Positions 1,635 through 41,300 of a DNA stretch of 64,000 nucleotides are shown here, piece by piece. The notes beneath the pieces are model-generated. The model saw nothing but the letters and a program-made list of their open reading frames with translations. It made no database searches and had not been told where the DNA came from. The DNA comes from an uncultured Gammaproteobacteria bacterium (GTDB taxonomy: Bacteria; Patescibacteriota; Patescibacteriia; UBA11705): contig CAYPSS010000005.1 of the NCBI GenBank assembly GCA_964413735.1, positions 4,398 through 68,397 of the forward strand, read 5' to 3'. Each line of letters begins with the position of its first letter. The first letter of the stretch is position 1. Both the position numbers and the translations under genes were made by a program.

Positions 1635-4301
1635 TTATTTTTCTGTTTGGTGTCTGGCAATAAAATAATATTTAACCGCCTCAATTAGCATGACATTGAA
1701 AATGCCAAGAGCAACAATCATCGGCCAAACGGAAAATGGTAATGGAACAGTCCCCAAAAGTTTATTGAAAATAGGTATATAAATACCGGCAATTAAACTT
1801 ACCAAACCAAATAACCAAGCACTCAGTAAAATTTTATTATCAAAAATATTAATTTGCCAAATGTTTTTCCTCAAGCTTTTACATGAAAATACATATAACA
1901 AAGCACTAATTGTTAAGCATGTAAAGATTATAGTTTGGATATAATCTAACGATAAATCACTACTCAAAAGAATATAAAACAAACCGAATAATAATAAATT
2001 AGTAATCAATCCCACCGCCAAAATCATAACTTTCATTTCATTATTCAAAAGCGGGGCTTGATTGGAATGAGGAGGACGATTCATACTGCCGATTTCCCTT
2101 TTTTCAAATGACAAAGCCACGGCCGGCAAACTATCTTCAATCAAATTGATCCATAAAATTTGGACCGCTGTTATCGGCAGTGGTAAACCCAAAATTATGC
2201 TGCCACTGATTAAAAATATTTCCGTAAAACTATAAGCTAACAAATAGGAAATCACTTTTCGCACATTATCAATAATGGCCCGCCCTTCTTCCACCGCTGC
2301 CACAATTATGGAAAAATCATCGGATAAAAGAACCAAATCAGAAACACTTTTCGCCACTTCAGTACCTGATCCCAAAGCCACCCCAATGTTTGCTTGTTTG
2401 ATAGCCGGCGCATCATTAATACCATCACCGGTCATCGCCACCACTTCACCTTTTCTTTGCCAAGCTTCAATGATCCGCATCTTATGTTTTGGTTCAACAC
2501 GGGCGTAAATCTTAATTTTATTTAATATTTTACTTAATTGTTTATCAGACATCTTTTCCATTTCCCAGCCTTCCAATATATTGTCATCATTTACTTTTAA
2601 CCCCAACTTATTCGCCACCGCTTTGGCCGTTAATTTATGATCACCGGTAATAATAATTGGACGCATTCCGGCGCGGAAACAAGTTTTGATCGCTTCTTTG
2701 GCTTGCGGACGAATCGGGTCCTCCAAGTAAACAAAACCCACAAAAACCAACTCAGAAACCGCTTCTTTCAAGTCAAAAGAACCAAATGTCCAGCCTGGGA
2801 TTTTTTTATAAGCCACGCCCAAAACTCGATATCCCTGCCCGGTTAATTCTTGATACTTATTCATTAATTTTTGACGCTTTTCATGATCAAGGATCTGTTC
2901 ATCATGATTGTCCTTAACATACCTTGATTTTTCCAAAATAATTTCCGGGGCACCTTTAACATAAAGAACATGATCGGCATTTTGTTTGGCATCCAAACTT
3001 ACTTTATTATCAGTAATTTTTCGTAAACTGGCGGAATATTTATAAACCGAACTAAAAGGAATTTGATCAATTTGCGGTTCAATGATTTCCAGTTGATTTT
3101 TTAATAATTCAAATTTAAGGCCCTCCATTATTAACGCCTTTTCCGTCGGCATTCCTCGCACTTCCCAATTATCTGGGTGCTCTTCGGGATTTTCCACAAA
3201 AGCTTCACTGCTTAATATTGCTTGTTTTAAAGCCAATTTTTCTTCATCATCAGAAGAAAAAAAAGTATAAATACCAGCCACGGACATTTTCGCTTGAGTC
3301 AAGGTCCCGGTTTTATCAGTAGCAATAATCGTGGTACTCCCTAAAGTTTCAGCGGCCGCCAAACTTCTAACCAAGCCTTTTCTTTTTAAAATTCTTTGCA
3401 TCCCCAAAGCCAAAATCACCGTCATGGCAATTGGCAATCCTTCGGGAATAGACGCTACCGCCAAAGCAACCACCACCGTAAACATTTCGATAAAATCACC
3501 TCCCATTAACATTCCGCGAAGAAAAACAAATAAACAGATTAAACCAATGACAAGCACTAACCATTTTGAAAATTTGGCAATCTTCTGTTGATACGGTGTT
3601 TGTTCTTCCGTAGCATTGCGTACCAAATCTGTCACTTGACCAATCTCCGTATTACTTCCTGTCGCCACAATAATGGCGCGTGCCCGACCATCCTCAATCG
3701 CCGTTCCCATGTAAACCATATTATCTCGATCCGCCAGTGGTGTTTCGCGAGATAAAACATCCTCTTTTTTGGTGGCCGGTAACCATTCTCCGGTTAAAGC
3801 CGATTCATTAACCTTTAGATTATGACACTCAATTAACCGAGCATCTGCTGGGACCTTATCGCCTGCACGTAATAATACAATATCACCGGGAACTAAATCC
3901 TCAACCAGAACTTGTTTTTCGTGATTATCACGCACAACAATTGCTTGAACACTCAAAACTTTTTTTAATTCTTGTAATGCTTTGGAAGATTTACTTTCCT
4001 GAATAAACCCAACAAAACTATTTAATAATACGGCCAAGAAAATTACAATCGCATCGGTGTATTCTTTGAAGATAATAGTGATAATCCCGGCTAAAATCAA
4101 AATGTAAATCAAAGGACTTTTAAATTGCATTAAAAAAATCATTACTTGCGACAATGATTTTTCTTCCGGTAATTTATTAAAACCATATTTTTTCTGACGA
4201 TTCTTCACTTCTTGATTTGTCAAACCAACCAAATTATCAGAATTCAGGTTTTTTATCACTTCCTCTGAACTGAGATTATGCCATTTTGCTTTAATTTTCA
4301 T
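1635..4301 (-). CDS. P-type cation-transporting ATPase (P2-type Ca2+/Mg2+ ATPase family)
   Basis: 888 aa. It has the DKTGTLT phosphorylation motif, a TGDGINDAPAIKQANIGVALG hinge motif, the N-terminal cation-ATPase domain and about 10 TM helices. Confidence 0.9.
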   Translation of the reverse strand: MKIKAKWHNLSSEEVIKNLNSDNLVGLTNQEVKNRQKKYGFNKLPEEKSLSQVMIFLMQFKSPLIYILILAGIITIIFKEYTDAIVIFLAVLLNSFVGFIQESKSSKALQELKKVLSVQAIVVRDNHEKQVLVEDLVPGDIVLLRAGDKVPADARLIECHNLKVNESALTGEWLPATKKEDVLSRETPLADRDNMVYMGTAIEDGRARAIIVATGSNTEIGQVTDLVRNATEEQTPYQQKIAKFSKWLVLVIGLICLFVFLRGMLMGGDFIEMFTVVVALAVASIPEGLPIAMTVILALGMQRILKRKGLVRSLAAAETLGSTTIIATDKTGTLTQAKMSVAGIYTFFSSDDEEKLALKQAILSSEAFVENPEEHPDNWEVRGMPTEKALIMEGLKFELLKNQLEIIEPQIDQIPFSSVYKYSASLRKITDNKVSLDAKQNADHVLYVKGAPEIILEKSRYVKDNHDEQILDHEKRQKLMNKYQELTGQGYRVLGVAYKKIPGWTFGSFDLKEAVSELVFVGFVYLEDPIRPQAKEAIKTCFRAGMRPIIITGDHKLTAKAVANKLGLKVNDDNILEGWEMEKMSDKQLSKILNKIKIYARVEPKHKMRIIEAWQRKGEVVAMTGDGINDAPAIKQANIGVALGSGTEVAKSVSDLVLLSDDFSIIVAAVEEGRAIIDNVRKVISYLLAYSFTEIFLISGSIILGLPLPITAVQILWINLIEDSLPAVALSFEKREIGSMNRPPHSNQAPLLNNEMKVMILAVGLITNLLLFGLFYILLSSDLSLDYIQTIIFTCLTISALLYVFSCKSLRKNIWQINIFDNKILLSAWLFGLVSLIAGIYIPIFNKLLGTVPLPFSVWPMIVALGIFNVMLIEAVKYYFIARHQTEK

Positions 4302-32940: not shown

Positions 32941-33552
32941 ATGTTAAATTTAATTGTTCACCCCTCAGGAGAACACCCAATGAGTAAACCCGGAACCATT
33001 TATTACTTTGATGGAATCAATCGACGAATGGTCGCCGAAGATGTTTCTTCACAAACCGATCGTTTTCGTTTGAAGGCCATTAAATTCATGCATACTTTGC
33101 ATCCTTTAGCCTCGCTCATTCAAAGATTGTTTGACAATGAAAAAATTGATGCCCAACAGCGTGATGTTTTGTTTGTTTGGGTGGGAACATTTGCATTCAG
33201 GACTAACATTTCCGAATCCCTGGTGATTGAACAAGAGAAAGAATTCCACAGTCAAGAACCTACCACCATTATAGCAAATGAAATGAGTTATTGGCAGTCA
33301 ATGTCAGCCAAGGAAAGAGATTGGTGGGGACCTTACAATTTCCCGGAATATGCCCAGCGAATTCAGGAAGACTTTCCTCTGGATACCAGTAAAATTCTAA
33401 TTCTACACCCGAGTCAACGCCAGCAAATTCTGGAAGGACTTTCCGGTTTGGTCAATCAGCGCGCATCGATTTTGATTCAATGTCTGGCGCTGTGTTTCCG
33501 AATTGCCCGACTGGCGGAAAAACAAAATCAATCGCGCAAAGGCTTTTTCTAA
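32941..33552 (+). CDS. Hypothetical protein
   Basis: 203 aa with no recognised motif. Confidence 0.4.
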   Translation: MLNLIVHPSGEHPMSKPGTIYYFDGINRRMVAEDVSSQTDRFRLKAIKFMHTLHPLASLIQRLFDNEKIDAQQRDVLFVWVGTFAFRTNISESLVIEQEKEFHSQEPTTIIANEMSYWQSMSAKERDWWGPYNFPEYAQRIQEDFPLDTSKILILHPSQRQQILEGLSGLVNQRASILIQCLALCFRIARLAEKQNQSRKGFF

Positions 33553-33582
33553 AACTTCGATGCTGAAAACTCAGCATCTTTT

Positions 33583-35343
33583 TTATTGACGCTGAGCATT
33601 CTTTTCTTTGATTTCCGCTATCAAATCATTAACCGTTAAATTAACTTGATCGTCTTGTCCTTTAATTCGTACCGACAAATCACCGCCACCCACTTCTTTA
33701 TCACCAATCACCACCATATACGGCACCTTTTCCTTTTCCGCTTTTCTGATTTTATAGCCAACCGTTTCATCACACTGATCAATTTCCACGCGAATTTTAT
33801 TTTCTTTTAATTTACTGGATAATTCCTGACAAAACTCAATATGCGCTTCGCCTACCGCAATTAATTTAACTTGAACCGGTGCCAGCCACACCGGGAAATT
33901 TCCACCATAATGTTCAAGTAAAATTCCCAAGAAACGATCAGGTGACCCAACAATAGCACGATGAATCATGACCGGTGTTTTTTCCGAACCGTCTTTATCA
34001 ACATATTTTAATCCAAAACGAGTCGGCATATTCAAATCCAATTGAATGGTAGAAATTTGCCATTCACGTTTTAACGCGTCACGCACCATAATATCCATTT
34101 TGGGACCGTAGAAAGCCGCTTCACCCAAACCAACCACATAATCAATTTTCTGTTTTTTTAATAAATCCTCCAATACATTTTGCGCCTTTTCCCAGACTTC
34201 ATCAGAACCAATATAACCTTCCTTTTTCTCTGGATCCCGTAATGATAAACGCACATAATAATTCATCCCATAAGTATTCAACGCTTCATTAATTACTTGC
34301 AAAACCGCTAAAAATTCTTGTTCTATTTGATCTTCACGACAAAAGGAATGCCCATCATCTTGCGCAAAACAACGTAGTCTGGTTAAACCGCTCAATTCTC
34401 CGGGTTTTTCATCACGATACAAATTGGCAAAATCACAATAGCGAATCGGCAAATCTTTATAACTACGCAACTCGGAAGCAAACAATTGAGTGTGTTGCGG
34501 ACAATTCATTGGTTTTAAATAATACTCTTCATCCGTATAATTGGAAACAACACGCAACATATCTTCTTTATACTTATCATAATGACCGGAAACTTTGAAA
34601 AGTTCCGCCTTATTCATATTAGGTGTATGCACCTTGCCATAACCGATTTTTTGATTTAACTCATCGGAATAATCAACGACCATTTGACGCAAAATATTAC
34701 CTTTTGGCGTGTACAAAGGCATCCCCGGTCCAACCAACTCAGAAAATACAAACAATCCCAATTCTTTGCCGAGCTTGCGATGATCGCGCTTAATCGCTTC
34801 TTCGCGCAATTGCACAAACTCTTTCAACTCATCTTTGGTAGAAAAAGCCAAACCGTAAATTCTTTGCAACATTTTGTTTTTTTCATTACCGCGCCAATAG
34901 GCACCGGCCACTTTGTCCAATTTGAAAAAACCAACTTCACCGGTATTTTCCAAATGTGGGCCGGAACACATATCTTCAAACATTACCTCACCGTTTTTAT
35001 TTATATTACGATAAAAACTGACGTTAACTTCACCTTTTTGCTCCAGTTCATCAATCAATTCCAATTTATAAGGATTATTTTTTAATTTTTCTCGCGCTTC
35101 TACCAACGTTAATTCAAATTTTTCAAATTCTTGCTTTTGTTTCACAATGTCTTGCATTTGCTTTTCAATTTTCTTCAAATCATCAGCGGAAAAACTCTCC
35201 TCAGCCAAATCAAAATCATAATAAAAACCATCGTCAATCGCCGGACCAATGGCTAATTTTGCTTCAGGGAAAAATTTCAAAACCGCTTGCGCCATGATAT
35301 GACTCAAAGAATGTCGCATGTCATGTAAATTTTGTTCTTTCAT
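33583..35343 (-). CDS. thrS: Threonine--tRNA ligase (lacks the N-terminal TGS domain)
   Basis: 586 aa. It has the second-additional/editing domain with 'RHSLSH', the class-II core motifs (..YYLKPMNCPQH.., FRDE.., GLGEAAFYGPKMD) and a C-terminal anticodon-binding domain. Confidence 0.95.
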   Translation of the reverse strand: MKEQNLHDMRHSLSHIMAQAVLKFFPEAKLAIGPAIDDGFYYDFDLAEESFSADDLKKIEKQMQDIVKQKQEFEKFELTLVEAREKLKNNPYKLELIDELEQKGEVNVSFYRNINKNGEVMFEDMCSGPHLENTGEVGFFKLDKVAGAYWRGNEKNKMLQRIYGLAFSTKDELKEFVQLREEAIKRDHRKLGKELGLFVFSELVGPGMPLYTPKGNILRQMVVDYSDELNQKIGYGKVHTPNMNKAELFKVSGHYDKYKEDMLRVVSNYTDEEYYLKPMNCPQHTQLFASELRSYKDLPIRYCDFANLYRDEKPGELSGLTRLRCFAQDDGHSFCREDQIEQEFLAVLQVINEALNTYGMNYYVRLSLRDPEKKEGYIGSDEVWEKAQNVLEDLLKKQKIDYVVGLGEAAFYGPKMDIMVRDALKREWQISTIQLDLNMPTRFGLKYVDKDGSEKTPVMIHRAIVGSPDRFLGILLEHYGGNFPVWLAPVQVKLIAVGEAHIEFCQELSSKLKENKIRVEIDQCDETVGYKIRKAEKEKVPYMVVIGDKEVGGGDLSVRIKGQDDQVNLTVNDLIAEIKEKNAQRQ

Positions 35344-35397
35344 ATTTTTTATTAAATTATTATATTGAGTAAAGAATTATGAATATAGAATATGGAA

Positions 35398-35781
35398 TTA
35401 AAATTTTTTTATCTTATTTGTACTTTTTATGATACCATTTAATAATTTATGGACATCAACCGTTTTTTTATAAATATTTTGATATTCATCATTCACTATA
35501 AAACTCAAATCTTTTGCTATTTCAATCTGATTTTGCACTTCTGTTAGAGATCCTAGAGAAATCACATAAAACCTTGTTTTATCTTTAGAGGTAATTCGGC
35601 TAAAACCTTCTGCGATGTTTGAAGTTATTGAGACAACAGCTCTTCTCAACTGCATTATTAATCCGAAAGTTTCATTTTCAGGAAAGACTTTCGTTGCTTT
35701 ATATATCATAAGAACCAATTTATGCCCTTCCTGCCAAACATACAAATCTTTGAATGTCCTGATTTTCCCCTCATCATTCAT
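35398..35781 (-). CDS. Four-helix-bundle protein (TIGR02436-like)
   Basis: 'FKDLYVWQEGHKLVLMIYKATKVFPENETFGLIMQLRRAVVSITSNIAEGFSR' matches the family consensus. Confidence 0.75.
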   Translation of the reverse strand: MNDEGKIRTFKDLYVWQEGHKLVLMIYKATKVFPENETFGLIMQLRRAVVSITSNIAEGFSRITSKDKTRFYVISLGSLTEVQNQIEIAKDLSFIVNDEYQNIYKKTVDVHKLLNGIIKSTNKIKKF

Positions 35782-35835
35782 AATTAATTATTCTAATTTC
35801 TAAATTCTAACTTCTAACTTCTTAATTCTAACTTC

Positions 35836-36273
35836 TTATTTCTCAATTAATATTGTCAGCGGACCATCATTTTCCAACTCAACCTTCATCGTCTTTTGAA
35901 ACTCGCCACTGGCAACAATTAAACCATTTTGTTTCATTTGTTTTAAAAAATATTCATACAAAGGTTGCGCTATTTCCGGTTTAGCCGCTTGAGTAAAATC
36001 AGGCCGTCGTCCCCGTTGACTATCAGCATAAAGCGTAAATTGCGACACCACCAACAGTTCCCCTTTTACATCAAGCACTGATTGATCCAATTTATCATTG
36101 TCATTGGGGAAAATTCTCAGATTCAAAATTTTTTCCACCAAATAATCGGCTTGTTTTTGAATATCATCTTCATGAATCCCCAAAAAAATCAAAAGCCCCC
36201 GACCAATTTGCCCAACAATTCTTCCCTCCACCTTAACACAAGCATAATTAACTCGTTGAATTAAAGCTTTCAT
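35836..36273 (-). CDS. dtd: D-aminoacyl-tRNA deacylase
   Basis: 145 aa. It has 'MKALIQRV...VEGRIVGQIGRGLLIFLGI' and the SQFTL motif. Confidence 0.9.
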   Translation of the reverse strand: MKALIQRVNYACVKVEGRIVGQIGRGLLIFLGIHEDDIQKQADYLVEKILNLRIFPNDNDKLDQSVLDVKGELLVVSQFTLYADSQRGRRPDFTQAAKPEIAQPLYEYFLKQMKQNGLIVASGEFQKTMKVELENDGPLTILIEK

Positions 36274-36280
36274 ATTAACA

Positions 36281-36440
36281 AAAAAGACTAAGTAATTCTT
36301 AGTCTTGGGGTCCTTTCACAATTCAAGGACGGTTCCACCCAAGTTTCTGCCAGAGGCAGACCCTTAATAAATTGTCAGTTGATTTAGTCAAAAATGAATC
36401 TGTTCGATAGTTAGTTGGTAGCTAACTCAATCATCAACTT
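36281..36440 (-). promoter_or_regulatory. T-box riboswitch-like leader (Thr-specific candidate) controlling the dtd/four-helix-bundle/thrS operon
   Basis: On the minus strand a near-consensus sigma70 promoter (36445-36472) is followed by a ~160-nt leader. The leader has a long stem I (AGTTGAT...ATCAACT) containing ACC-A and ACU-A candidate specifier triplets. The T-box core 'cuuGGGUGGAACCGucc' (plus-strand 36328-36345) fits the AGGGUGGNACCGCG consensus. The intrinsic terminator 'AGACTAAGaattaCTTAGTCT' + T6 (36284-36305) ends 8 nt before the dtd ATG. The T-box sequence can alternatively pair with the terminator 5' strand (cccaag), as expected for an antiterminator. Confidence 0.6.
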
Positions 36441-36444
36441 GTTA

Positions 36445-36472
36445 ATTATACAACCCTCGGGAAATTTGTCAA
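36445..36472 (-). promoter_or_regulatory. Sigma70-type promoter for the T-box leader / dtd operon
   Basis: On the minus strand: TTGACA, a 16-nt spacer, then TATAAT. Confidence 0.55.
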
Positions 36473-36478
36473 ATAAAA

Positions 36479-36499
36479 AACCAACTTTTTAAGTTGGTT
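36479..36499 (-). terminator. Intrinsic terminator of the upstream minus-strand gene (36504..37034)
   Basis: Minus strand: AACCAACTT-aaaa-AGTTGGTT followed by a T-run. Confidence 0.6.
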
Positions 36500-36503
36500 G
36501 TTA

Positions 36504-37034
36504 TTATTCAATGAAAACGGTAGGCTCCAAGCAAATATACTGAATTTCGGGTGGAAACATCTCATCGGCCGAAATATTTTCGAGCAAACAACGGCCATTA
36601 CCCAAATTCAGCGGACAGTCTTGATAGCTGTAGCTATGTTCAATTTTACAATCATTCCAAAAGTATTCGAACAAATACAAACGATACGCCCAAGAATAAT
36701 CTGATTGAAAATACAACTCCACCTGAATTGACTGATCTTCCGGCAACCAGACCAGTTCGATTTTTTGCAAATCAGTCGATTGCAAATTACCGATTTCGGC
36801 ATTTTCCAACTGATCTTCAGTTTCCACTAAGGCCTTGGTTTCCATTCCATCCTGGAAAAATCTTTCCAAATCTTCCTGAGTAAAAGAACCATCAAACCAA
36901 GCGGCTGATGCTTGAATAGCAATAATCAAAAAAATTGTAAATACCGCCCAATCGGTTTTCCTCATCTTCCCCTCCTTTAGGGTCAAACCATGAAATAATA
37001 TATTATCAGATTTAATACTTCTTGTCAACAACAA
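36504..37034 (-). CDS. Secreted hypothetical protein
   Basis: 176 aa with an N-terminal signal/TM (WAVFTIFLIIAIQASA), several Cys, and an acidic character. Confidence 0.45.
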   Translation of the reverse strand: MLLTRSIKSDNILFHGLTLKEGKMRKTDWAVFTIFLIIAIQASAAWFDGSFTQEDLERFFQDGMETKALVETEDQLENAEIGNLQSTDLQKIELVWLPEDQSIQVELYFQSDYSWAYRLYLFEYFWNDCKIEHSYSYQDCPLNLGNGRCLLENISADEMFPPEIQYICLEPTVFIE

Positions 37035-37072
37035 AAAACCCCCGGTAAAAGGGGGCTTTTTATCAAATTATA

Positions 37073-38212
37073 TTAATCAGTTAAAATATTTATGGTAATA
37101 TGATCGATCAATGAAGGGACTCGCTTCACCCAAAATGGCGTTAAACTGATAGATACGCTTTCAATTTCATCAAAACTTGATAAATATAGCTCGACACCAC
37201 GCACACTTAAACCGGCAATTTTTTCTTTGTTCAAAATATCACTATCTTCCCGTAAAACGGTTTCTCCCTCAGCGTGAATTTTCACATTGGCAGTTTTGTT
37301 TTCCGCATTATAATTTTGCACCACATAAGAGAAATTTTCCATTTTCATCTTACTAAGCTCACGCTCACCCGTAACCAATTTTTTCAAACGATCGATTGAT
37401 AGTTGAACAATGTCAGTTTGTTTTATCCCCATGATTGTCACTTCAACCGTTTGTTCCACCTCAAAAGAATCCACCGTATCATCCACTCCGGCCGAAACCT
37501 TTTCATCGGTTAATTTTTGGGCCACCACCACCGCGGCATAATCTTCTCCCACTTCTTGATGAAAACGCGCAATCGCTTCCTGATAAATTTTGTTGGTTAA
37601 TATTTCCTTGGCTTGTGCAATATCCACGGCTTTTACCACTTTGATATCACCCGGCTTACTGTTAATCACAGATAAACTTTCCGCATAAACGATTTTTTGC
37701 AATTCCAATGACAACCCGGGAATAGTAAATTTCATGGGCGCTAAAGATTCAAATGCCGAAGGGTCATCGGCATAAACTTCCGCTTCCACACTACCATTAG
37801 CCGGAACTGTAATTCGATTCTTTAATCTCAATAAAACATTATCAGCGGTTAATAATCGAGTGGTGGCCACCAAAGGCTGATCAACGGTTTGCTCATTATA
37901 AACCTTTACCACACCAATAACATCATTATCCAAACTTTTTGTGCCGGTGGCTCTGGCCGTTTCCGTTAAGGAAACTTTGGTTTCAAAAATAAAACCAGCT
38001 AATGCTCCGGGCGACAAATTATCAGATTGCGTTTCCAAATCCGCAATAAAATCCGTAGCGATGGTTGCTTTTTGCGGTTTAATTTCAATCAAAGCTCGAG
38101 AAAAAGAAAAATAAAAAATCACCCCCAACAATATAACCGTTAAAACAACAAAAATAATGATGAATTTAACATATAAACTTGAAACTCCAACTCGTGGTTG
38201 TCCTGTCATCAT
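37073..38212 (-). CDS. Membrane-anchored hypothetical protein
   Basis: 379 aa with a single N-terminal TM followed by a large extracytoplasmic domain. Confidence 0.45.
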   Translation of the reverse strand: MMTGQPRVGVSSLYVKFIIIFVVLTVILLGVIFYFSFSRALIEIKPQKATIATDFIADLETQSDNLSPGALAGFIFETKVSLTETARATGTKSLDNDVIGVVKVYNEQTVDQPLVATTRLLTADNVLLRLKNRITVPANGSVEAEVYADDPSAFESLAPMKFTIPGLSLELQKIVYAESLSVINSKPGDIKVVKAVDIAQAKEILTNKIYQEAIARFHQEVGEDYAAVVVAQKLTDEKVSAGVDDTVDSFEVEQTVEVTIMGIKQTDIVQLSIDRLKKLVTGERELSKMKMENFSYVVQNYNAENKTANVKIHAEGETVLREDSDILNKEKIAGLSVRGVELYLSSFDEIESVSISLTPFWVKRVPSLIDHITINILTD

Positions 38213-38303
38213 AAAATTAATTTATTTGGATATAATTATATTATTAATAATATTTATGGTACTAAACAATTATATTATACCAAAAAAATGAACATCCACC
38301 AAA

Positions 38304-41300
38304 TCATTTCAATTCCACACTGGACTCCCCCAATAATTGATTGATCACATCGACCAAAGACAAACAATATTTGACCCGAAAATTGGTTTTGACCATTTTA
38401 TTGTCGATTTTAAGAAATACTTGATTGTCTCCACGATATTGATTAAAAATAGTTTTCAATTTCTCGGCCAAAATCAAATCCGCGCCTTTGGGATACTTGA
38501 TCAAAACGGTTTTCTTATTTAATCCTTGAGGTTGAAACTGTTTGGCTTTTTGATTCACTTCATTAACATTGTTGATCGTCAAATCCCAAATCGCGTTAGC
38601 CAAAATTTTTGGTTCATTGTCCTTCAAACTCACTTGACCATGAATAACAATGAATTTTTCCGGCTGCAACATACTTTCCGTTTCCTTGAATAATTTGGGA
38701 AAGACAATCAATTCTACGCCCGTTAAATTATCTTCTATTCGCACAAAAAGCATAGGTTCACCTTTGGCGGTAATGATTTTTTTTATTGAAGTAATCACCC
38801 CACTAACCACCACTGGCGCGCGGTCAATAAATTCTTCATGTAAAATTCGAGACGGAGTATAAAAATTTTCATCCAATTTACCAATAAATTCCGTAAACGG
38901 GTGTTCGGAAACATAAAGACCCAAGAATTCTTTTTCCCAAGACAACCGTTGCGCCTTACTGGCGGTCTCCACTTCGATTAAGGAAAGTGTCGGTAAATTA
39001 CTGGCGCCATTCAAACTAAACAAATTAGCTTGTTTTTTGTTTTCTTCTTCATCAATGGCCTTAATAAATCTAATAATCCGATCAATATTTTCCAGAGCAC
39101 TGTTTCTTTCCACCAATTTATCCAAAGCTCCGCTTTTGGCCAACCCTTCAATTGACTTTTTATTCAAATCTTTTGACTTTACTCGAATTAATAAATCTTC
39201 CAAATTTTCAAATCGACCAAACCTTTTTCTTTCATGGATAATTTCTTTGACAATATTTTCACCTAAATTTCGTATCGCTTGCAAACCAAAACGAATTGTG
39301 GGTTTATTGTTTTTTAATGATTCCGCCACCACCGTAAAAGTGGTGAAACTTTCATTAATATCCGGTGGCAAAACTTCTATCCCCACTTGTTTACATTCAT
39401 CAATTTCAATAGCCACCCGATCCATATCTTGTTGATCACTGGTCAAAAGAGACGCCATAAATTCTACCGGATAATTAGCTTTCAAATAAGCGGTTTGATA
39501 AGCAATCAAAGCATAACAAGCAGCATGAGATTTATTAAAACCATATTCAGCAAACTTTTCCATACTGGAAAAAGTTTCTTCTGCCAATTTGCGGGGTAAA
39601 TGTCGAGATACACAACCATCAACAAAATCTTTTTTCATTTTGGCCATTAAATCCGCAATTTTCTTACCCATAGCCTTACGCAAAGTATCTGCCTGACCAC
39701 CGGTAAACCCCGCCATATCCTTTGACAATTGCATTACTTGTTCTTGATAGACAATTACGCCATAAGTATTTTTCAAGGCATTTTCCATAATCGGATGCGG
39801 ATATGATACTGTCTTGCGACCATGTTTACGATCAATAAATTCTTCCACCATACCGGAATTTAATGGACCGGGACGATACAATGAAACCATCGCAATCAAA
39901 TCTTCAAATTGCGTTGGTTTTAATTGACGCAAATATCTTTTCATCCCACTTGATTCAAATTGAAAAACTCCAGTAGTTTTTCCTTGTTGAAACAATTTAA
40001 AAGCTTTTTCATCATCTTGCGGAATTTTATCAATATCAATTTTTACTTGATGAATTTTTTCAATCACTTCACAAGCATGTTGGATAATAGTTAAGTTTTT
40101 TAATCCCAAAAAGTCCATTTTCAATAAACCTAAATCTTCTACCGGATGCAAAGAATATTGTGAAACAATATCTTGATCAGAAGTGGCGGAATATTGGACC
40201 GGCGTATATTCTGTCAGTGCTTTGGGAGTAATTAAAACACCACAAGCATGGGTCGAACTATGTCGTGCCACACCTTCCAATTTCAAAGAAAAATCAAGTA
40301 ATCGTTTGGCGTCAGAATTTGCCTTATATAAATCATTTAATTCAATATTTTGATTAATGGCATTTTCCAAAGTCATCCCCATTGGCACCATTTTTGCCAC
40401 TTTATCACAAAATGAATATGGCATATCCAAAACTCGACCCACATCACGCACCGCGGCACGTGCCGCCATTGTCCCAAATGTTATAATTTGCGCCACTTTA
40501 TCTTTGCCATATTTATTTTCCACATATCGCAACACATCGGCCCGTCGAACATCGGCAAAATCAGTATCAATATCAGGCATTGATATTCGATCGGGATTCA
40601 AAAATCGTTCAAACAACAAATCATAATCAAGCGGATTTAGATTGGTAATTTTGGTTAGATAAGCCACCAAACTTCCGGCCGCCGAACCACGTCCCGGGCC
40701 AACCACAATACCGTTGTTTTTCGCCCACACAATAAAATCTTGAACAATCAAAAAATAAGAAGCGTATCCGGTTTTTTCAATAACACTGAGTTCATAAGAT
40801 AAACGATCAATGATTTGTTTTTGTTCTTCAGTAGTAACATTTGAAGCCTCAAATCCAAAACGCTCCTTAATTCCCAAATGACAAAGATGGGTTAAATATT
40901 CAAAATCAGTTTGTCCCTCCGGTACGGCAAATTCCGGCAATTGAATTACACCTAAAGGAATCTCCAAATTACATTTTTGCGCCACCGTCAAAGTATTTTC
41001 AAGCACTTCTTTGTTTCCTCGGAAAAAACCGGCCATTTGCGCACTGGTGTAAAGAGAAAAATCTTCCCCCAAATAACTCATGCGATTTTCATCGGTAATT
41101 TTTTTCTTAGTCTGCAAACAAATTAAAATATCATGAGCTTCCGCATCTTGAGTATTTAAGTAATGCACATCATTGGTCGCCACCACCGGAATATTTAATT
41201 TTTTGCCCAATTCAAAAATTTTATCATTAACGATTTTTTGCTCGGGCAAATTTGGATGATGTTGCACTTCCAAATAATAATTACCTTCCCCAAATAAATT

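Follow-up and report, generated by a model that had tools for sequence, protein, structure and literature searches.

The question raised by the locus described here is whether a member of the Patescibacteria (Candidate Phyla Radiation, CPR) controls its threonyl-tRNA synthetase (ThrRS) operon with a tRNA-sensing T-box riboswitch, and if so with a T-box of what kind. The element is a leader of ∼160 nt on the minus strand of a 64,000-nt stretch of contig CAYPSS010000005.1 (the window), with its 3′ end formed by a terminator hairpin directly ahead of dtd, the first gene of an operon that also contains thrS. A preliminary description of this DNA, made from the sequence alone, had taken the leader for a textbook T-box with a long stem I. 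We conclude, with a probability of about 0.8, that it is a threonine-specific transcription attenuator of the T-box type in which a canonical discriminator would be joined to a non-canonical, minimal decoding domain. Comparative analysis supports a T-box-type leader for tRNA-Thr that is transcribed from its own promoter and combines an ACC specifier with an antiterminator and a terminator. It appears to work like a class I transcriptional T-box yet fails several features of the Rfam T-box model (RF00230), and we regard it as a structural variant of a known riboswitch class, not as a new principle. The leader is structured, as had been claimed, since its predicted fold is better than that of shuffled sequences (z = -3.7; 1 of 200 shuffles was equally good).

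The 3′ half of the leader has all the sequence elements of a canonical T-box discriminator, namely a purine-flanked stem III, helix A1, the bulge UGGAACC and helix A2. The T-box core reported earlier, CUUGGGUGGAACCG, is present at 36343-36330, and is preceded by stem III (UCUGCC-UCU-GGCAGA, 36360-36346) and a conserved AA (36345-36344), which together occupy 36344-36360 on the minus strand. Directly 5′ of stem III, AAGGG (36365-36361) fits the RRRxG purine string and the AA supplies the 3′ flank, in keeping with the described discriminator motif RRRxG-stem III-AA (PMC7583486); between the window and the related locus L084, stem III differs by a compensatory U-A to C-G change. The predicted antiterminator (36304-36343) consists of A1 (CUUGGG 36343-36338 with CCCAAG 36309-36304), the 7-nt bulge (36337-36331) and A2 (GUCCUU 36330-36325 with AAGGAC 36315-36310). 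It is followed by an intrinsic terminator (36278-36306) made of AAGACUAAG (36306-36298), the loop AAUUA, CUUAGUCUU (36292-36284) and the tail UUUUGUU, so that the terminator announced just ahead of dtd is indeed there, the 9-bp stem (36306-36284) ending 10 nt before the dtd ATG. The preliminary description also held that the terminator's CCCAAG can pair with the T-box CUUGGG; the pairing stands, as helix A1, but only the AAG of that strand lies within the terminator stem.

These elements recur at the same place in related genomes. In a comparison set of 80 Patescibacteria thrS loci and four closer relatives (element counts are given out of 85 loci), GGGUGGAACC or its variant GGGUGGAAAC was found upstream of thrS or dtd-thrS in ∼30 of 85 loci, and the first four bases of the bulge were UGGA in every Patescibacteria leader. 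With the descriptors used, no T-box was found at thrS in the remaining ∼55 of 85. We consider this conservation upstream of thrS and dtd, as read from the compared sequences, to be the strongest evidence against a chance resemblance.

Comparative analysis likewise establishes, at the level of predicted structure, a 5′ domain composed of helix P1, the junction GAUUG, a hairpin P2, a variable P3, the junction CUAA and the P1 3′ strand. On the minus strand, the P1 5′ strand GUUGAU (36433-36438), which pairs with 36383-36378 and is supported by covariation, leads into GAUUG (36428-36432) and then into the P2 specifier hairpin (36409-36427), whose strands AGUUAG (36427-36422) and CUAACU (36414-36409) enclose the loop CUACCAA (36421-36415). 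The P3 region (AUCGAACAGAUUCAUUUUUGA, 36388-36408) is represented in relatives by one or two hairpins of unrelated sequence, and is followed by CUAA (36387-36384) and the P1 3′ strand AUCAAC (36383-36378), together 36378-36387. This architecture (class A) is shared by ∼22 leaders, in which P1, GAUUG, a P2 heptaloop of consensus CUACCAA, P3 with one or two hairpins, YUAA and the P1 3′ strand follow one another in the same order. GAUUG is nearly invariant among them (A8, T9 and G11 of the class A alignment are invariant, and G7 and T10 occur in at least 90%). The threonine codon ACC (36419-36417) and the following purine, A36416, lie within the 7-nt terminal loop of P2, where the heptaloop displays codon and purine in an anticodon-loop-like context; across the leaders the codon sits in the terminal loop of a 6-9-bp hairpin and not in an internal loop with an S-turn. 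Two candidate specifiers had been put forward, ACC-A and ACU-A. The first is the one in the P2 loop, while the second was rejected, as it falls within the 3′ strand of the P2 stem, where it is paired, and varies among relatives.

A linker (UGACAAUUUAUUAAGGG, 36361-36377) that includes CAAUU (36374-36370) and AAGGG (36365-36361) connects the P1 3′ strand to stem III. Its motif CAAU[UC], placed directly after the P1 3′ strand in 12 of 19 class A leaders, is complementary to GAUUG (36432-36428). Pairing of GAUUG with CAAUU could form a pseudoknot that positions the discriminator; the invariance of GAUUG means that this pairing gives no covariation signal.

The evidence for P1 and P2 comes from blocks of 14 leaders that were anchored on sequence motifs only, to keep the alignment from being fitted to the structure; in leaders with more than one YUAA candidate, complementarity helped to decide between them and introduces a slight bias; six leaders had a single candidate. 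Standard pairs filled 91.1% of the P1 and P2 cells, against 49.3% after shuffling (0 of 500 shuffles reached the observed value) and 24-37% in slid registers, and the covariation score was 1.09 against 0.25 and 0.05-0.17, respectively. Double-sided, compensatory changes were present at 12 of 12 pairs. Strands paired far better with their cognate partners than with those of other leaders, both in P2 (5.9 of 6 pairs versus 3.0) and in P1 (4.4 of 5 versus 2.3). RNAalifold run on a plain MAFFT alignment recovered P2 independently, with all six pairs covarying; the full-length MAFFT alignment misaligns P3 and the P1 3′ region and was not used for a covariance model.

A descriptor search of 795 kb, on both strands, returned 18 matches with ACC in the loop, all of them on the thrS strand and just upstream of thrS or dtd, together with 10 matches to miscellaneous triplets that correspond to background (6-26 per shuffled replicate). 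Every class A leader has ACC, with a purine after it that is either A or G (G in L023 and L055). We assign the specifier role to ACC because the triplet is invariant, the cognate gene lies downstream, a purine comes next and ACC-A recurs in the internal loop of a different set of thrS T-boxes, termed class B (L012, L013, L034 and L075). The loop could instead serve another purpose: its ACCA might mimic a tRNA 3′ end and pair in cis with the UGG of the bulge, to which CCA is complementary, or the hairpin might be an operator bound by ThrRS, autoregulation through leader hairpins being known from the thrS leader of E. coli. We consider both versions very improbable. In a mimic of CCA the first A of ACC would be unneeded and would face the bulge A, and yet it is invariant; the purine that follows conforms to the specifier rule of T-boxes; in class B relatives ACC-A is again displayed, there in an internal loop of the specifier type; and the P2 loop contains a codon and not an NGU anticodon, so that it does not mimic the anticodon arm read by ThrRS. 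Both candidates were rejected on these points, which leaves the P2 loop as the putative specifier of a T-box.

The leader has its own promoter. The upstream gene ends in a terminator hairpin (AACCAACUUAAAAAGUUGGUU and a U-run, 36479-36499, minus strand), and the leader is therefore a separate transcription unit. It starts with a sigma-70-type promoter on the minus strand (36445-36472), made of TTGACA (36472-36467), a 16-nt spacer and TATAAT (36450-36445); the near-consensus promoter of the preliminary description is thus confirmed as a 12/12 match, and it is the sole 12/12 match within the 5.5 kb from 33000 to 38500. Transcription is predicted to start near 36439-36437, a few nucleotides ahead of P1. 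In 17 of 19 class A relatives the end of the -10 box lies 10-16 nt ahead of GAUUG, and this constant distance suggests that the RNA begins at P1.

The leader is followed by three co-directional genes on the minus strand, separated by 54-nt spacers and with no internal terminator predicted: dtd (D-aminoacyl-tRNA deacylase, PF02580, 35836-36273, ATG at 36273), a four-helix-bundle (4HB) gene (35398-35781, PF05635 (23S_rRNA_IVP), with a weak match to bAvd) and thrS (33583-35343), the cognate regulated gene, encoding a ThrRS of 586 aa. Gene order and domain assignments uphold the earlier proposal of a dtd-led operon with thrS behind the leader. The spacer between dtd and the 4HB gene (35835-35782) is a degenerate tandem repeat (AGAAGTTAGAA...). 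The ThrRS of the window and its CPR homologues (∼586 aa) have the tRNA_SAD, tRNA-synt_2b and HGTP_anticodon domains and lack an N-terminal TGS domain. No further aminoacyl-tRNA synthetase (aaRS) gene was found among the ten large open reading frames (ORFs) examined in the window. The CPR-like host suggested earlier is borne out by the ThrRS homologues, which place the organism in the Patescibacteria, the best named matches being Falkowbacteria and Buchananbacteria at 64-65% identity.

The arrangement can be followed in the four nearest relatives, all of which have a class A leader ahead of dtd with thrS downstream. The closest of them, L084 (ThrRS identity 85%), has the P2 loop CCACCAA and the bulge UGGAACC, with nothing but a 14-nt gap between dtd and thrS; L085 (68%) has CUACCAA and UGGAACC, and L087 (64%) CUACCAU and UGGAAAC, each with two unknown genes between dtd and thrS; and L004 (64%) has CUACCAC and UGGAAAC. 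Since the arrangement is common to all four, the placing of dtd and thrS behind a single T-box is conserved in the lineage. The presence of dtd and of the 4HB gene in the operon had been called unusual; the 4HB gene, absent from L084, is a recent, strain-specific insertion between dtd and thrS. In L085 the A2 loop of the antiterminator contains a structured insertion of ∼90 nt (∼2045-2135).

The order of these parts suggests how the leader may operate. The P2 loop would pair with the anticodon loop of tRNA-Thr with anticodon GGU, UACCA being fully complementary to U33-G34-G35-U36-A37, and the 3′ end UCCA of the uncharged tRNA would pair with the UGGA of the bulge. This second contact would stabilise A1 (CUUGGG/CCCAAG) and so sequester AAG, the three basal nucleotides of the terminator, leaving a 6-bp hairpin (-3.5 kcal/mol on its own) that stops short of the U-tract, and RNA polymerase would continue into dtd and thrS. 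With charged tRNA-Thr, A1 would be left unstabilised, the full 9-bp terminator (-8.9 kcal/mol on its own) would form and transcription would stop ∼10 nt ahead of the dtd start codon. In intrinsic termination it is the closure of the stem at the basal pairs adjoining the U-tract that matters most; on that basis, withholding AAG would keep the hairpin off the U-tract.

A number of observations weigh against this interpretation, and the results with RF00230 come first among them. At its gathering threshold (93 bits) the model found no match over the whole window, and in a sensitive local search of 361 nt it reached 31.4 bits (E = 2e-5), far below that threshold; scaled to the whole window we estimate E at ∼3.5e-3. 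The local match is sub-threshold but non-random. Posterior probability was near 1 over stem III, the AA, A1, the 7-nt bulge and A2. The ‘stem I’ part of the alignment is an artefact that spans the promoter and the terminator of the upstream gene and includes many non-canonical pairs. The features that a conventional stem I would provide are also missing: there is no K-turn at the base of the decoding domain, where sequence inspection of GAUUG/CUAA gave no tandem G.A/A.G and a K-turn reading of the two junctions was rejected; there is no distal AG bulge or distal loop (the interdigitated T-loops that form the platform for the tRNA elbow), as P2 ends in its heptaloop; and no stem II S-turn or IIA/B pseudoknot is recognisable after P2, where P3 varies in sequence and in hairpin number. 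Transcriptional T-boxes generally need a long stem I (PMC7583486), and a T-box that ends in a terminator and has its specifier in a heptaloop would depart from that rule.

The same results bear on the reading put forward in the preliminary description, in which the leader is a textbook RF00230 T-box whose long stem I includes a K-turn, presents ACC-A or ACU-A in an internal specifier loop and contacts the tRNA elbow through a distal platform. The core, the antiterminator and the terminator that such an element would have are all present. The long stem I is not: P1 encloses a 6-bp hairpin with a 7-nt terminal loop, the structure that covariation favours, and neither the K-turn, nor the internal specifier loop, nor the distal AG bulge and platform is found. 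The low score is not peculiar to the window either, given that 0 of 15 Patescibacteria relatives reached the gathering score, with three scoring 30-41 bits. Judged by the conditions that the preliminary description itself had set for refutation, a sub-threshold Rfam score or missing stem I features, the textbook reading fails and is already refuted.

A further objection to a threonine-specific T-box concerns the tRNA and the codon. ARAGORN found no tRNA-Thr gene in the window (tRNA-Gln and tRNA-Asn only) or in any compared locus. The cognate tRNA-Thr is predicted from the leader to have the anticodon GGU and U73, the latter being plausible because threonine identity depends little on position 73 (PMC9976931). 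In a metagenome scan for class A leaders with loop triplets not beginning with A we found no true instance among 6 matches, five of which lie in coding sequence and one of which (L093) is an ordinary T-box that lacks the class A fold. With no class A leader found that has another codon, the specifier assignment is made without codon-to-gene covariation, and the class A design appears to be specific for threonine.

The output side of the switch poses its own difficulties. Terminator and antiterminator overlap by only the 3 nt AAG (36306-36304) shared with A1, and the conformation with the terminator, A2 and a GGG/CCC pairing (-27.2 kcal/mol) is nearly isoenergetic with the full antiterminator and 6-bp terminator remnant (-26.6 kcal/mol), and for these reasons termination may be only loosely controlled. 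A2 is closed by G36330-C36310 and not by the G.U wobble, to which the main role in sterically sensing the aminoacyl group has been ascribed (PMC7583486); among 30 CPR leaders this pair is G-C in 15, G.U in 8, A-U in 6 and C-G in 1. The short overlap recurs in L084 and L085, while several other relatives, among them L007 and L041, have classic long terminators that overlap 10-11 nt of the antiterminator; strict contiguous-helix scans missed bulged leaders, and such overlaps are reliable for simple cases only.

The nearly equal energies, the 3-nt overlap common to the window, L084 and L085, and the missing wobble would all suit a leader that is decaying in this lineage, or has become a constitutive relic, a fixed partial terminator that may no longer tell charged from uncharged tRNA. 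We think this quite improbable. All parts are kept at ThrRS identities of 64-85%, with compensatory changes in P1, P2 and stem III and with ACC and UGGA invariant, a pattern that argues for purifying selection on the parts that would bind tRNA. The three shared nucleotides are, moreover, the basal pairs at the U-tract, which are the most critical for termination.

The small overlap, and a terminator stem that ends only 10 nt before the ATG, could also be taken to mean that the switch is translational, mainly or additionally, with the hairpin by the dtd start codon blocking the ribosome when the antiterminator is unstabilised, as in actinobacterial ileS T-boxes. Short or ‘ultrashort’ stems I are otherwise typical of translational T-boxes (PMC7583486). 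Such a switch would have nothing to sequester here: no Shine-Dalgarno-like sequence was found ahead of dtd, the 4HB gene or thrS (36265-36285, 35782-35800 and 35344-35360), and Shine-Dalgarno sequestration is disfavoured on that ground. A U-run follows the hairpin in the window and in most relatives, the terminators of L007 and L041 are of the classic kind, and some relatives have 160-380 nt between the element and the first ORF downstream of it. We therefore consider translational control unlikely and retain the attenuator. The start codons of dtd, the 4HB gene and thrS are preceded by A/U-rich stretches.

Beyond class A, the Patescibacteria thrS leaders are diverse. Class B T-boxes (Magasanikbacteria-like; L012 ∼3760-3990, L013 ∼3780-4000, L034 ∼3280-3470 and L075 ∼1320-1490) have ACC-A in an asymmetric internal loop (AUGGUACCAC) on a longer stem, which is closer to the canonical specifier loop, and L015 is a hybrid of a class B 3′ half and a CUACCAA heptaloop. 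In the divergent leaders L058 (∼1970-2000) and L059 (∼3785-3815) a CUACCAA hairpin is set on an internal loop in which inspection reveals a K-turn-like pattern (GGAGC-GCU-GA-C ... C-GA-GCUCC), a form that may be intermediate between a canonical stem I and class A. L017 (3681), L018 (3623), L066 (3933) and L082 (3895) have a discriminator upstream of thrS with a decoding domain that fits neither class clearly. Discriminators vary as well. The class A leaders L023 (∼3860-3890) and L041 (∼3885-3912) have no stem III between the P1 3′ strand and the T-box, stem III having been described as indispensable for the discriminator, and the Falkowbacteria-like L004 (2721-2727) and L087 (2007-2013) have the bulge UGGAAAC and not the near-universal UGGNACC, whose ACC trinucleotide has been credited with stabilising the fold of the discriminator.

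T-boxes count as a Gram-positive feature, and there has been hardly any work on regulation in Patescibacteria, with their reduced genomes; a 2024 perspective discusses riboswitches only as synthetic tools (PMC11665869). We found no literature linking T-boxes with CPR or Patescibacteria, in a library that was incomplete, so that an earlier description is possible. The T-box database TBDB was built from hits of Rfam models and a class II search confined to Actinobacteria, and for that reason probably lacks the Patescibacteria leaders; none of the group is picked up by annotation pipelines that apply the Rfam gathering score. With thrS under a conserved attenuator that senses tRNA, Patescibacteria would monitor tRNA charging directly. 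We tentatively propose, at somewhat less than an even chance, that class A is a new structural class of T-box, in which a P1-closed junction with the codon in a heptaloop would capture tRNA-Thr co-transcriptionally by loop-loop (kissing) and NCCA contacts alone, without K-turn, elbow platform or stem II S-turn. If true, this would contradict the generalisation that terminator-type T-boxes need a long stem I, and a terminator-type leader that presents its specifier in a heptaloop and makes no contact with the tRNA elbow would offer a natural minimal system for studying what co-transcriptional tRNA capture needs of stems I and II.

Compared with known systems, the leader shares with the class I transcriptional T-boxes of Firmicutes (B. 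subtilis tyrS and glyQS; RF00230) its own promoter, an antiterminator and a terminator at the leader end that would compete, a 7-nt UGGNACC bulge between A1 and A2 that would read the tRNA 3′ end, stem III with RRRxG and AA, a specifier ending in C and followed by a purine, and putative control of the cognate aaRS gene. It departs from them in lacking a long stem I, a K-turn, an internal specifier loop with an S-turn and an interdigitated T-loop platform, and in having no recognisable stem II or IIA/B pseudoknot; in the placing of the codon in a heptaloop at the end of a hairpin that lies within a multi-helix junction closed by P1; in an A2 closed by G-C and not G.U; in the 3 nt shared by terminator and antiterminator; and in its RF00230 score (31 versus 93 bits).

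The translational operator of E. coli thrS likewise places a leader hairpin with a 7-nt, anticodon-loop-like loop ahead of thrS. The E. coli hairpin imitates the anticodon of tRNA-Thr and is bound by ThrRS itself, whereas the loop described here contains the codon ACC, the complement of the anticodon, in a leader that continues into a T-box discriminator and a terminator.

The truncated decoder most resembles, by analogy, the actinobacterial ileS T-boxes of M. smegmatis and M. tuberculosis, which have an ‘ultrashort’ stem I without elbow platform (PMC7583486, PMC12990946, PMC7913692). In both cases the discriminator is conserved and the tRNA is held, or here would be held, only by codon-anticodon and NCCA-bulge contacts. 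The ileS elements, however, act on translation by Shine-Dalgarno sequestration, keep the K-turn and need a stem II S-turn and a IIA/B pseudoknot. The leader of the window, in contrast, has a terminator as its output, no Shine-Dalgarno sequence, no K-turn pattern and a variable region after P2, and its P1 encloses both P2 and P3, in a different phylum and for threonine in place of isoleucine.

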